This document shows positions 29,483 through 31,728 of a stretch of DNA of 64,000 nt, piece after piece (position 1 is the first letter of the stretch; the number at the start of each line of letters is the position of its first letter). This stretch comes from a virus. The stretch is taken from IMG/VR virus record IMGVR_UViG_3300042864_001965; one strand, written 5' to 3'. The notes beneath the pieces are model-generated. The model was not told where the DNA came from. It made no database searches and worked only from the letters and a program-made list of their open reading frames with translations. The translations under genes were made by a program, and so were the position numbers.

Positions 29483-30028
29483 CTTGCAATTTACTTAACA
29501 AGTCAAGCCGATTGTTACAAAAACCTACCATAGGATGATATACAATGGTACAACTCTTGCAATCTACTTAACAAGTCAAGCCGATTGTTACCGGCTAAAA
29601 ACATTCGCTAATCGCGTCGGTAAACTCACTCTTGCAATCTACTTAACAAGTCAAGCCGATTGTTACCTAAGTCGATCACTTGGATAAAACCGATATTCTC
29701 TGGCTTGCAATCTACTTAACAAGTCAAGCCGATTGTTACAATTGCTATAGATACTCCATATAGTAAATGTGGCCCTTGCAATCTACTTAACAAGTCAAGC
29801 CGATTGTTACCATTAAAGGCTCTAAGGTTTCCTGAGTTTTGGATACTTGCAATCTACTTAACAAGTCAAGCCGATTGTTACATGACCCTCAAAATGTCAC
29901 GACCCCAACGTTAAAAGCTTGCAATCTACTTAACAAGTCAAGCCGATTGTTACCTGTGTGGATGAGGCCTATCATGCTATCTGAATTGGCAACTTGCAAT
30001 CTACTTAACAAGTCAAGCCGATTGTTAC
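29483..30028 (-). CRISPR. CRISPR array, 8 x 36-bp repeats, 7 unique spacers
   Basis: CTTGCAATCTACTTAACAAGTCAAGCCGATTGTTAC (plus-strand reading) at 29483, 29556, 29631, 29704, 29775, 29846, 29918 and 29993. Copy 1 has one mismatch (T for C at 29491). Spacers are 37, 39, 37, 35, 35, 36 and 39 bp, all different. Minus strand is inferred because the degenerate repeat is distal to the minus-strand effector gene. Confidence 0.92.
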
Positions 30029-31728
30029 CCAGTCTCCCAGAGTGTAAGCTGCGTATAGCCTGCGTTGACTGTTTGCGCGGGTTGCGAGTGGATCGACCTT
30101 TTCCTTGTTTTTTTCTTGGGTGTCACTGGCTCGGAGGTCAAAACCAGTAAGGTTTCGAGGGTTTCTTCCCCAAGTAACAATCGGCTGGACTTGTCAAGTA
30201 ATTCCTCCTGCGCTGATTCCTTATCGAAATCCTTCAGAGGCTTAACTTCCCCGGTACAAGCCGGGTAGCTTCTTACGAAGTCTGCTTTCCCTAAGATGTT
30301 GATTGCGGCGGCCACATCTCTAGGTAAAGTACATCCACACTCTAAACATTTATGGGTGCGGGTTGATAAACTTTTTTTAACACGATTGCCACAGCGAGGA
30401 CAATCCTGGCTGGTGTAAGCTGGTTGAACTTTGATAAACTCTCGGTTGGGAGTTTTCATTTTCGTTTCAAGAAAACCGGTTAATTGTCCTAAACTAGCAT
30501 CAGCAAAGGATTTATTTAATCCCCCTTTGGCTTTCGCGTTATTGCGTTCGTAGCCTTTACCGTCTTCTCTTTTTTTCGGTTTAGGTCGTCGCATTAAATT
30601 CTTTAAGTTGAGGTCTTCTACGGCTACAGCGCCATGATTTCTAGCAATATCGGTACTTAAGGCATGATTAAATCCTTTGCGTTGTCTTGCTATTTTTTCG
30701 TGAGTTTTGGCAACTTTAGCACGAGTTTTAGCGAGATTTTTGCCGTCTTTATTTTCCCCTGCTTTATACTGTCTAGCGGTTTTTCTTTGCAGTCTTGCTA
30801 GTCTTTTTTGCCGTTTTCTATAGTATTTGGGCGGGTCAATTTGTTGCCCGTCGCTGGTACTAATTATATATTCTAGTTTTACGTCAATACCGATTGCTTT
30901 ATCGGAATCAGGTAGATCATCTACTTCAAATTCACCAAATAGACTTAGATAATATCCCGATGGGTATTTGATAATTGATACAGTAGAGGCTTTTCTGTCA
31001 CCCCACCGAATGTCTAAGGTATTGTTGACAATCTTTAAATCGCCTAATGTTTTGCCACAGCTACCTATAGATATTTTATCCCCTTTTCTAACAGCGCAAT
31101 TGCTGATCTCAGAATAAAGAGATTTAATTTTATCTTCTTTTCTTTTAAATCTAGGAAGTTTTCTGTCTAAATTCTTTTTATCGAGTTTGGTGTAAGCTTT
31201 CCAAGAATCAGCAAGCTTTTTTAAAACCCCTTGGACAAAAGCCATAGGGATGTCCTTGCATAGTTCTGGACATTTTTCTTTTGTAATACAGCCACATAAC
31301 CCAAAATAATTATCAGATTTTAACCGCCGTTGAATAGGGACATGAACAGGATAAGAGTGACCTGTTTTTTGTCTTTTTTCTCTAGCTATCTGTATTTTAA
31401 CTTTTTGCTTGCCAGTTAAATATTTGGGGGTGTAAAGGGGATTAGGAAGGGATTTACCTTTTTCGTTTTTCAGGGAGTCAATAAATTGAGGTTTTTTAGC
31501 TAAACGACGTTTAACCCGTTTAACTGGTTTTCCTGTTATTTGCTCAAGCTCGTCGTAATACTTATTAAGCTGATATTCCATCAGTAGCTCTAGTCCAAAA
31601 TTCCAGACAGCTTTAAGCTCGTCCATCCAGCGATCAATATAGGCTCGCTGAGTGGCATTAAGGTTAAGCTTTGTGTCCGCAATAGTTTTTTTGACTAGCA
31701 TGGCTTTCATGGATCGACCTTCTTTCAT
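30025..31728 (-). CDS. TnpB/Cas12-like RNA-guided nuclease candidate (RuvC residues intact, zinc ribbon), CRISPR-associated
   Basis: OrfB-type N-terminus KLNLNATQRAYIDRWMDELKAVWNFGLELL; RuvC-I AIGIDVK; RuvC-II GAVAVEDLNL; zinc ribbon CPRCGNRV...HKCLECGC; RuvC-III RDVAAAINIL. About 95 further residues follow, including PKKKTRKRS. The TAA stop (30027-30025) lies inside the first repeat. The likely start is M7 (MKAMLVKK, 31710) behind GAAGG. Confidence 0.85.
   Translation of the reverse strand: MKEGRSMKAMLVKKTIADTKLNLNATQRAYIDRWMDELKAVWNFGLELLMEYQLNKYYDELEQITGKPVKRVKRRLAKKPQFIDSLKNEKGKSLPNPLYTPKYLTGKQKVKIQIAREKRQKTGHSYPVHVPIQRRLKSDNYFGLCGCITKEKCPELCKDIPMAFVQGVLKKLADSWKAYTKLDKKNLDRKLPRFKRKEDKIKSLYSEISNCAVRKGDKISIGSCGKTLGDLKIVNNTLDIRWGDRKASTVSIIKYPSGYYLSLFGEFEVDDLPDSDKAIGIDVKLEYIISTSDGQQIDPPKYYRKRQKRLARLQRKTARQYKAGENKDGKNLAKTRAKVAKTHEKIARQRKGFNHALSTDIARNHGAVAVEDLNLKNLMRRPKPKKREDGKGYERNNAKAKGGLNKSFADASLGQLTGFLETKMKTPNREFIKVQPAYTSQDCPRCGNRVKKSLSTRTHKCLECGCTLPRDVAAAINILGKADFVRSYPACTGEVKPLKDFDKESAQEELLDKSSRLLLGEETLETLLVLTSEPVTPKKKTRKRSIHSQPAQTVNAGYTQLTLWETG
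30175..30204 (-). ncRNA. anti-repeat (tracrRNA-like or omega-RNA-like segment) inside the effector ORF
   Basis: Plus strand GTAACAATCGGCTGGACTTGTCAAGTAATT is the reverse complement of the CRISPR repeat, with 25/27 matches over the first 27 nt. Transcribed with the gene, it is complementary to the minus-sense repeats. RNA boundaries are unknown. Confidence 0.55.

Follow-up and report, generated by a model that had tools for sequence, protein, structure and literature searches.

Can one stretch of phage DNA be read both as the end of a CRISPR nuclease and as the scaffold of the RNA that guides it? The question is raised by a 64,000-nucleotide window (IMG/VR record IMGVR_UViG_3300042864_001965) in which an effector gene on the minus strand runs directly into a CRISPR array. 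The original prediction, made from the letters and open reading frames alone, held that the effector frame stays open for ~95 codons after its last catalytic motif, stops inside the first repeat, and leaves no space for a leader. The frame is indeed open for 85 codons past the RuvC-III motif (96 counted from the catalytic D471), its TAA lies within the first minus-strand repeat, and no intergenic DNA separates the gene from the array. The features discussed below are collected in Table 1.

Table 1. Positions of the effector gene, its tail, the scaffold RNA and the array in the window
Feature	Position	Strand	Remarks
CRISPR array: eight 36-nt repeats, seven spacers of 35-39 nt	29483..30028	(-)	last repeat with one change
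Repeat 1	30028..29993	(-)	
Stop codon TAA, nt 2-4 of CRISPR repeat 1	30025..30027	(-)	
c2c8 (type V-U2) effector ORF, stop included	30025..31728	(-)	567 aa; NF038192 match, Pfam domains
C-terminal tail, codons 483-567, predicted disordered	30028..30282	(-)	AF2 model
Q-L-T-L-W, residues 560-564 of 567	30037..30051	(-)	conserved motif, candidate beta-clamp-binding
Basic patch PKKKTRKRS, residues 537-545	30094..30120	(-)	K/R-rich patch kept across the family
Anti-repeat, 34 nt, translated as ELLDKSSRLLLG (residues 509-520)	30173..30206	(-)	duplex energy, natural variants
Conserved 5' module of the tracrRNA, 72 nt (R1)	30199..30270	(-)	alignment, RNAalifold, covariation, covariance model
Stem 1, with loop CUUGUA 30260-30255	30265-30261 with 30254-30250	(-)	
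Stem 2, base plus upper hairpin	base 30240-30236 with 30208-30204	(-)	
Stem-1 loop CUUG	30257..30260	(-)	predicted pseudoknot partner of the repeat's last 4 nt, CAAG
RuvC-III motif codons PRDVAAAINILGKA, residues 469-482	30283..30324	(-)	conserved protein core ends here
Sigma-70-like promoter TTGACA-18-TAGATT with TG	31738..31767	(-)	upstream of the ORF; consensus match only

By sequence, the phage-borne effector belongs to the type V-U2 (C2c8) family. It matches the NCBIfam model V_cas_c2c8 (NF038192) over residues 19-452 with 361.2 bits (cut-off, 350), has the Pfam domains OrfB_IS605 and Cas12f1-like_TNB, and is 36-50% identical to named C2c8 homologs. Its best solved relative in a profile search of the PDB is Cas12p (9jfs, E 2e-73); the published Cas-delta is a different and larger family. 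A TnpB-like split RuvC (D-E-D) and a CxxC...CxxC zinc finger are indicated by an alignment of 38 sequences, in which D282, E371 and D471, together with C443, C446 and C461, are invariant and C464 is at least 90% conserved. The match to the guided_TnpB profile stops at residue 479.

The ten flanking ORFs scanned are of phage type (Rha, PIN, NlpC/P60, tail) or carry no assignment, and cas1, cas2, cas4, tnpA or any other transposase is not among them. An array that adjoins the effector gene, without cas1, cas2 or cas4 among the neighbours scanned, is the V-U2 layout. The locus DNA found no match in the phage GenBank collection, nor did the array and its spacers at E ≤ 1. When 69 distinct spacers were compared with the 64-kb window and the collected homologous loci (blastn-short), the one match, of 16 nt, was of the kind expected by chance.

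The part of the protein behind RuvC-III is predicted to be disordered, with pLDDT below 50 at residues 493-567 and 76-86 in the preceding blocks of the AF2 model. How does this tail evolve? Synonymous and nonsynonymous rates were compared in three sister clades, the phage's own clade having only 13 variable tail sites. When closer relatives are compared pairwise, dS is 0.03-0.18 for the proximal tail versus 0.34-1.08 for the core, i.e., 4-6 times lower, and dN/dS of the proximal tail is 1.06-1.37. Over the last 30 codons dS is higher and dN/dS falls to 0.17-0.69 in all eight pairs, with few sites per pair. Among 20 near-identical loci, the third codon position accounts for 6 of 13 variable sites in the tail versus 13 of 14 in the core. 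In the three sister clades, the proximal tail thus evolves as RNA, under a nucleotide constraint that is blind to frame, and the last ~30 codons evolve as protein, while the middle of the tail, at dN/dS ~ 1, shows no protein selection. We do not count the conservation of Y488, KP and QE after RuvC-III as evidence for protein function, because RNA pairing accounts for part of it.

What is selected in the last 30 codons? The basic patch noticed in the original prediction is present, and behind it, three residues from the end, lies Q-L-T-L-W. A motif of the form Q[LMI]x[LIF](x[LF])[WF] occurs in 52 of 74 proteins (P0002-P0073, P0083, P0100) and is absent from the ~400-aa TnpB relatives. Among its variants are QLTLF, placed at the extreme C-terminus in P0083, QLSLF, QLQLF and QLPLWE, and many members carry a seven-residue form, QLELDLW, that is an in-frame step away from the five-residue QLTLW.

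Such conservation could also be read at the level of nucleic acid. The tail might be translated into a functionless peptide, its frame being open as a side effect (for example, of translation that stabilises or unfolds the transcript), and the 'motif' might be a nucleotide signal at the junction of gene and repeat 1, for instance one that directs processing or, like a leader, anchors spacer integration. The geometry agrees with this: in 10 of 10 loci with a detected array a constant 8-9 nt lie between the Q-L-x-L-W/F motif and repeat 1, and the arrays of loci that are 98% identical differ almost completely, so that arrays actively change at this junction. Nostocales-type loci show hardly any variation in the motif DNA, CAGCTTAC, and some constraint at the nucleotide level is possible there; for Cas12n, the tail is reportedly dispensable. 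Across lineages, however, the amino acids of the motif stay constant while the codons turn over (Leu as CTT, TTG, CTA, CTC, CTG or TTA; Ser as AGT, TCG or TCC; Gln as CAG or CAA), the five- and seven-residue forms are separated by in-frame steps, and dN/dS is below 1 over the last 30 codons. Moreover, some homologs have two copies of the motif, or one well away from the end of the ORF (L006, P0040, P0042), and loci that lack an array retain it (L003, L004, L108). We regard a functionless peptide as rather improbable and favour a module selected as protein.

To what might such a module bind? The consensus of beta-clamp-binding motifs is QL[SD]LF. Like the C2c8 tail, these motifs are short, of the form Q-L-x-L-aromatic, and found within disordered sequence at the C-terminus or close to it; QLTLW itself lies in the segment with pLDDT below 50. 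They differ from the family in that many C2c8 members have the seven-residue QLELDLW instead. A W-variant, 352-QLPLWG-357 of ImuB, is a validated beta-clamp-binding motif (PMC10421592). Complex prediction of tail residues 518-567 with DnaN of Dolichospermum circinale, taken as a stand-in for the clamp of the phage's host, gave weak support, with a score of 0.58 versus 0.02 for the best of three controls, a pass that may reflect memory of the solved clamp-peptide complexes. Of 80 solved complexes, 58 reach the mark applied, with runs agreeing in at least 48% of contacts and a partner pLDDT of at least 40, as do 2 of 110 mismatched pairs; at scores of 0.60 or less, only 7 of the 80 reach it, together with both mismatches that passed. 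Given the custom alignments, these counts hold roughly. A tblastn search for a sliding clamp in the phage, with Dolichospermum DnaN against the 64-kb window, gave no match.

The resemblance, together with the model, hints that the module is a candidate for clamp docking. The stronger proposal would be that C2c8 effectors carry a genuine beta-clamp motif (basic patch plus QLxLW/F) on a linker that is itself the tracrRNA gene, tethering the nuclease to DnaN and replicating DNA or forks; we hold this tentatively, as a possible but somewhat doubtful extension. If true, this would be the first CRISPR- or TnpB-type effector recruited by the replisome clamp, and the sequence of an RNA gene would have been co-opted as a protein linker that delivers a short linear motif. 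RNA-guided DNA targeting would then be linked to the replisome, a new mode of effector recruitment. Our literature search found no paper that connects TnpB, Cas12 or a CRISPR effector with a clamp-binding motif.

We turn to the proximal tail and its evolution as RNA. The 72-nt module R1 begins right behind the RuvC-III codons and, with the anti-repeat, falls within effector codons 487-520. Its covariance model scores 72.1 bits at the phage locus and matches every C2c8 locus, always just after RuvC-III, including C2c8 loci outside the training set whose proteins are only 31-35% identical. In the alignment, 98% of the cells in the R1 stems are paired, and the covariation of 0.505 compares with 0.123 in shuffles (0 of 500 as high) and 0.03-0.06 in slid controls. 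Folded individually, 13 of 16 loci form the upper hairpin of stem 2, and do so from unrelated sequences. The stem-1 loop can make 4 of 4 pairs with the repeat 3' end in 11 of 12 loci, as CUUG:CAAG, CUUU:AAAG, CUUC:GAAG or GUUG:CAAC, with covariation at two positions; the conserved repeat 3' end and this predicted pseudoknot set the direction of the array. A further pairing that we considered, between stem 1 and a CCGCGC element of the 'RSAQ' codons, was dropped, because in L109 the two show no covariation. An Rfam scan of 27000-33000 (E ≤ 1) returned two sub-threshold chance matches and no known RNA family.

The anti-repeat pairs with nt 1-33 of the repeat at -43 kcal/mol. Shuffled repeats give means of -16.5 to -20.7 and best values of -21 to -28.8 kcal/mol, and no second anti-repeat of similar strength occurs within ±10 kb on either strand (next best, -29). 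Natural variants preserve the pairing. In one RNA run (X5), 30197 in the anti-repeat and 30005 in the repeat have changed together, from U:A to C:G, and variants of codon 512 (GAC>AAC or GAC>GGC) keep the pair as A-U or G.U. Anti-repeat and repeat also covary among clades L105, L110 and L170, in each of which the anti-repeat follows R1 at an offset of 45 nt. For 30280..29993 folded in cis, the MFE is -99 kcal/mol (z -4.3). The scaffold starts ~65 nt upstream of the anti-repeat, which refines the original prediction.

By duplex energy, an anti-repeat did not rise above shuffled repeats in L005, L101-L104 (Dolichospermum-type) and L113. Inspected by eye only, pairing in these loci looks bipartite, with CCUUGACAAU facing the 3' end of the repeat and AAGCAUUUCA its 5' end.

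How would such an RNA be made? The sigma-70-like site upstream of the ORF is the only one of its kind upstream of the array on the minus strand, and a consensus scan found no promoter inside the tail, a scan whose consensus cyanobacterial or phage promoters may not fit. Because the tail has no promoter-like site, we infer that the tracrRNA originates by processing. RNA contigs from four metatranscriptome studies cover 29992-30274, one of them reaching 30435, although contigs are unreliable for ends and abundance. Contig starts at 30274, 30265 and 30252 in three freshwater studies, each running on to repeat 1, give a weak hint of a discrete RNA, and one tail contig is directly followed by an Illumina adapter. 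The 3' ends near 29992-30001, inside the repeat, are probably assembly breaks. In three runs, contig depth is 12-20 over the tail versus 2-8 over much of the ORF body, with other ORF contigs at 11-27; as contig depth cannot rank the parts of a gene, we set it aside as a sign of a separate tail RNA.

An alternative is that the anti-repeat and stems are no tracrRNA at all: the effector would use crRNA alone, and the structure would be an mRNA element, acting as an autoregulatory site or in stability. This would agree with the report on cyanophage CL131, in which a tracrRNA was not found (PMC6293099), with a review table that enters 'no' under tracrRNA for V-U2 (PMC11641405), and with the outcome of the consensus scan for an internal promoter. 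Those earlier statements, however, rested on searches of intergenic DNA. Covariation of repeat with anti-repeat, and of loop with repeat 3' end, is predicted for the pairing of a guide RNA and not for a pure mRNA element, and the closest relatives that have been characterised, Cas12p, TnpB and Cas12n, each depend on a long scaffold RNA with exactly this kind of pseudoknot. We consider a pure mRNA element very unlikely and proceed with a tracrRNA encoded in the tail.

Is the open frame, across both parts of the tail, a trait of the family? In 20 diverged homologous loci, tails of 58-141 codons and of unrelated sequence all remain in frame with the terminal motif, and in at least 13 lineages the ORF stops between -23 and +31 nt from the start of repeat 1. 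The original prediction had named homologs with a stop just after RuvC-III as the observation that would count against it; we found none. To the reading that the open frame is chance or an annotation artefact, with the gene functionally ending at RuvC-III, we give next to no weight: the single-locus probability (put at ~1% originally, and P = 0.02 for 82 open codons at the tail's own base composition) is not negligible, but no stop codon stands at RuvC-III, so that ribosomes must continue; not one stop interrupts the 2218 tail codons of the 20 lineages, versus 92 and 156 stops in the alternative frames; and 26 of 26 near-identical metagenome loci with a complete gene end keep the frame. Judged from these comparisons, the open tail is a family trait and not due to chance. 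Dual use of the tail DNA, as protein tail and as guide-RNA scaffold, is supported by comparative data for both halves.

We thus propose, with a probability of roughly 80%, that 30028-30282 of this phage V-U2 locus is read both as a tracrRNA and as a protein tail that ends in a selected module, an arrangement inherited from the overlap of TnpB and omega-RNA. The minus-strand transcript, probably started at the gene's own promoter and cut from the 3' end of the mRNA as in TnpB, would form the tracrRNA part of the guide, with two stems behind the RuvC-III codons. The stem-1 loop would join the last 4 nt of the repeat in a pseudoknot, and the anti-repeat would then pair with the rest of the repeat: in cis with repeat 1, 144 nt downstream, giving an omega-RNA-like single guide, and in trans with later repeats. 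Ribosomes on intact mRNA would read through the RNA gene to the stop in repeat 1 and add a disordered tail of ~85 residues. The proximal two thirds of this tail would be a passenger of the RNA sequence, its amino acids unselected, and the frame would stay open so that the module, basic patch and then Q-L-x-L-W, gets made. Most likely the module acts as a short linear motif through which the effector docks on a partner, with the host beta sliding clamp as our leading, tentative candidate. Since the stop lies within the repeat, duplication of repeat 1 at spacer gain would regenerate the same C-terminus. A hint of the suggested ancestry comes from a 405-aa TnpB (L143), which has a weak R1-like module (28 bits) over the 3' end of its own ORF.

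Of the original 'V-U' subtypes, V-U2 alone is still listed as uncharacterised, and published notes deny it a tracrRNA. A tracrRNA in the ORF tail, with stems, pseudoknot and anti-repeat each backed by covariation, would supply the parts needed to reconstitute these very small phage nucleases. It would also make the tail a clean natural case of a DNA segment on which two selective regimes act one after the other, proximally as RNA and distally as protein.

How do these findings compare with known systems? The layout itself is already known from Cas12n and from TnpB with its omega-RNA; what is new is a C-terminal motif under selection. In Cas12n (type V-N, formerly V-U4/C2c9), the tracrRNA overlaps the part of the ORF that codes for a disordered tail (PMC12216341; bioRxiv 10.64898/2026.03.27.714800). 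Cas12n and the phage effector are both small, TnpB-derived and extended by a disordered tail past RuvC-III, with tracrRNA and anti-repeat in the tail DNA and no adaptation genes. However, they belong to different protein families: the phage protein scores above the cut-off of the C2c8 model, and Cas12n (9j09) is its fifth-best PDB match (1.5e-43), behind Cas12p (2e-73) and TnpB. By these matches the locus resembles Cas12n in layout without being a member of its family. Furthermore, whereas the Cas12n tail is reported dispensable, the phage tail has a conserved basic patch and QLxLW, and its ORF runs into repeat 1.

A pseudoknot with the 3' end of the repeat is given as a hallmark of Cas12 tracrRNAs in bioRxiv 10.1101/2025.01.20.633832. 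As far as the sections of the published account consulted here go, Cas12p ('Cas12 hacker', PDB 9JFS) is likewise phage-borne, with a tracrRNA that forms this pseudoknot and a disordered CTD called a TnpB legacy; it measures 741 aa and has a thioredoxin-binding REC insertion, and these sections describe no overlap of tracrRNA and ORF. Unlike the phage effector it has no long tail, the profile match extending to residue 724 of 741. The V-U2 locus of cyanophage vB_AphaS-CL131 also has a C2c8-type effector beside a short array and no other cas genes. The paper describing it reported no tracrRNA and left the direction of the array open (PMC6293099), whereas we place the tracrRNA in the ORF tail and fix the direction. 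A survey of TnpB and Cas12 in PNAS contains nothing on the V-U2 tail.

The phage locus resembles TnpB with its omega-RNA (for example ISDra2, PDB 8H1J/8EXA) in having a sense-strand scaffold that overlies the nuclease ORF at its 3' end and is followed on its own 3' side by the guide. It differs in the absence of tnpA or another transposase among the neighbours scanned, in an array of eight repeats instead of a single guide, in a scaffold split into anti-repeat and repeat, and in a tail of ~85 aa versus about 10-30 aa in TnpB relatives. The phage locus may thus extend the account of 'RNA splitting' in the passage from TnpB to Cas12 to another lineage.

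The effector passes the curated cut-off of the NCBIfam type V-U2 model V_cas_c2c8 (361 bits; cut-off 350), is also matched by the general guided_TnpB model through residue 479, and carries the Pfam domains OrfB_IS605 and a Cas12f1-like TNB zinc ribbon. With a profile of 38 homologs, its nearest solved relative is Cas12p ('Cas12 hacker', 9JFS; 2e-73), followed by ISDra2 TnpB (1e-52) and Cas12n (9J09; 1.5e-43). The neighbours are phage genes encoding Rha, PIN, NlpC/P60 and Rcc01698-like tail proteins and a 3262-aa tape-measure-like ORF; no cas1/2/4 or transposase was found among them. 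Phage genes surround the CRISPR locus, which lies in an accessory stretch (window 20639-35286) where several small ORFs lack a Pfam match. G+C of the window is 36.7%.

Beyond RuvC-III, the frame stays open for 85 further codons and ends in repeat 1, the first CRISPR repeat. The original prediction read this DNA as both C-terminal tail and guide-RNA scaffold, and every element it listed was found in place. The comparison set comprised C2c8 loci fetched from genomes, viral contigs and metagenomes. At least 13 diverged lineages (31-50% protein identity) have their ORF stop -23 to +31 nt from the first base of repeat 1. Tails in 20 lineages are 58 to 141 codons long and mostly unalignable, and every one is in frame, with 0 stops in 2218 codons (92 and 156 in the other two frames). 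At the level of sequence comparison, the family data exclude chance as the source of the open frame. The C2c8 homologs compared thus do not stop just past RuvC-III, the result that would have refuted the original prediction; short-tailed proteins in the searches are ~400-aa TnpB relatives, not C2c8.

Features of the effector locus and its surroundings (window positions unless residues are stated)
Feature	Position	Strand	Remark
Effector ORF, 567 aa	30025..31728	-	open reading frame
RuvC-III (PRDVAAAINILGKA)	residues 469-482	-	
Anti-repeat, translated as ELLDKSSRLLLG	30206..30173	-	
Basic patch PKKKTRKRS	residues 537-545	-	
Stop TAA	30027-30025	-	nt 2-4 of repeat 1
CRISPR array, eight 36-nt repeats, seven spacers of 35-39 nt	30028..29483	-	adjoins effector gene
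Sigma-70-like promoter, TTGACA-18-TAGATT with TG	31767..31738	-	strong consensus match; precedes effector gene
Recombination-directionality-factor-like gene	20639..21646		
Rcc01698-like tail/host-specificity gene	23998..26298		
Rha gene	32422..33168		
PIN-domain gene	33604..33933		
NlpC/P60 gene	34855..35286		

An RNA module (R1) common to all C2c8 loci follows the RuvC-III codons directly and runs UACC, stem 1, GGAAGUUAAGCCUG, variable hairpin, CAGGAA. The original prediction had proposed RNA covariation and dN/dS comparisons across homologous loci, and both were run. RNAalifold recovered stem 1 and the helix CCUGN/NCAGG at the base of stem 2. Over 16 loci, 98% of cells are paired versus 79% in shuffles, and the stems covary with a score of 0.505 versus 0.123 (reached by 0 of 500 shuffles; slid controls, 0.03-0.06). 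Unrelated sequences form the upper hairpin of stem 2 in 13 of the 16. A covariance model of R1 has a match at this position in all C2c8 loci, including loci outside the training set (E below 1e-12), and has no strong match in ordinary TnpB loci. The tail DNA is a predicted RNA gene, and the conservation of Y488, K-P and Q-E past RuvC-III is therefore largely a shadow of RNA pairing in the module.

Extra R1 copies (46-57 bits) occur in three fetched loci, at L009:2002-2068, L009:2603-2671, L109:3068-3139 and L178:682-754. One L009 copy is intergenic, upstream of the c2c8 gene, and the other lies inside the gene's N-terminal coding region; duplication or insertion has apparently carried the module to other places, coding DNA included. 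Longer tails (L005, L101-L104, L113, L003, L180; alignment A4) hold further nearly invariant nucleotide blocks, namely CCCGCGCA, present twice and read as '(T/I)RAP' and 'RSAQ', and GCGCGG...GGGGATGT, read as 'RGxGDV'. They point to possible further long-range RNA helices.

No other strong anti-repeat lies within 10 kb on either strand. The duplex of this one with repeat nt 1-33 reaches -43 kcal/mol (shuffled repeats average about -17 to -21), and 30280..29993 (288 nt) folds with the anti-repeat in cis to repeat 1 at -99 kcal/mol (z -4.3). Anti-repeat and repeat covary between clades, and the offset after the module is fixed in L105, L110 and L170. In a variant strain of the phage population, 30197 and 30005 change jointly from U:A to C:G despite Leu to Pro; two variants of codon 512 (Asp to Asn or Gly) keep their pairs as A-U or G.U. 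In 11 of 12 loci, the last four bases of the cognate repeat can pair with the first four of the stem 1 loop (loop:repeat CUUG:CAAG, CUUU:AAAG, CUUC:GAAG, GUUG:CAAC). This is a predicted pseudoknot with the repeat 3' end, of the type that one preprint gives as characteristic of Cas12 tracrRNAs (bioRxiv 10.1101/2025.01.20.633832).

Selection differs along the gene. Pairs of related loci have core dS of 0.34-1.08 and dN/dS of 0.02-0.10. In the proximal and middle tail, dN/dS is ~1 (1.06-1.37; dS 0.03-0.18, closer-relative pairs) and change is equally slow at all three codon positions, the signature of constraint as nucleic acid, not as peptide. In the last 30 codons, dS rises to 0.12-0.72 and dN/dS falls below 1 (0.17-0.69). 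Among 20 near-identical copies of the locus, third codon positions hold 13 of 14 variable sites in the core and 6 of 13 in the tail. Residues 493-567 fall below pLDDT 50 in an AlphaFold2 model built with the family alignment.

Nearly all C2c8 proteins end in a K/R-rich patch followed by Q-L-x-L-W (variants QLELDLW, QLTIW, QLSLF, QLQLF and QLPLW, and QLTLF as the last residues), 8-9 nt before repeat 1 in every locus with an array. Many homologs continue past it with residues (e.g. AGE...) that are the translated repeat 5' end, GGTGAAA. Codons within the motif turn over synonymously (Leu CTT/TTG/CTA/CTC/CTG/TTA; Ser AGT/TCG/TCC; Gln CAG/CAA), which argues for selection on its amino acids. Selection on this C-terminal peptide also accounts for a frame that no stop breaks even though its middle is neutral.

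Motifs that bind the bacterial beta clamp take the form Q-L-x-L-[F/W] in a disordered terminus. The W variant has been validated in ImuB, 352-QLPLWG-357 (PMC10421592). We predicted the complex of tail residues 518-567 with DnaN of Dolichospermum circinale, a stand-in for that of the phage host. It scored 0.58 (best of 3 controls, 0.02; at least 48% contact agreement between runs; partner pLDDT at least 40), graded as weak support. In calibration, 58 of 80 solved complexes reached the mark, as did 2 of 110 mismatched pairs; only 7 of the 80 did so with a score of 0.60 or less, as did both passing mismatches. The alignments were author-built and the model may remember solved clamp-peptide complexes. 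Clamp binding by this candidate motif is therefore the leading reading but a tentative one. A Gloeomargaritaceae C2c8-like gene (L008:3217-3554) has a tail with QLGLF and a weak R1 match (17 bits); the nearest array starts 85 nt beyond, with a different, G+C-rich repeat ending GAAAC, and may be of another CRISPR type.

The tracrRNA would be released by processing of the effector mRNA 3' end, as happens with TnpB; this route is proposed because a consensus scan found no sigma-70-like site inside the tail, and the promoter before the effector gene is the only such site upstream of the array on the minus strand. RNA contigs from freshwater metatranscriptomes of four studies cover the tail, and all extend into repeat 1. 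Three start at 30274, 30265 and 30252 (the last directly adjoining an Illumina adapter), near the module start at 30270, a weak hint, from assembled contigs, of a discrete RNA.

Near-identical copies (97-98%) are carried by 19 IMG/VR viral contigs and by further freshwater metagenome contigs. In 20 loci with effector genes this similar (window 29483-30028; L081-L099), arrays differ almost entirely, with 69 distinct spacers, few shared blocks, internal deletions, 18-nt spacers and 107-112-nt gaps at a degenerate repeat. Arrays thus turn over fast at a locus that lacks cas1/cas2.

The observation is confirmed, and RNA covariation, open frames and tail selection support the dual use of tail and scaffold, to which we assign a probability of about 0.8. 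For V-U2, no tracrRNA is reported in the literature searched (PMC6293099; review table in PMC11641405). In Cas12n (V-U4), the tracrRNA overlaps a disordered ORF tail (PMC12216341; bioRxiv 10.64898/2026.03.27.714800), as at this C2c8 locus; unlike in Cas12n, the ORF here extends into repeat 1 and has a selected motif at its end. The overlap also mirrors that of scaffold and ORF in TnpB. On one viral contig, a weak R1 match (28 bits; L143:3144-3246) overlaps the last ~37 codons of an ordinary 405-aa TnpB, which is consistent with descent of the module from an omega-RNA. The best-supported conclusion is that a tracrRNA written over a tail is a known layout, ordinary in kind and well documented at this locus, to which a possible clamp tether would be one testable addition.
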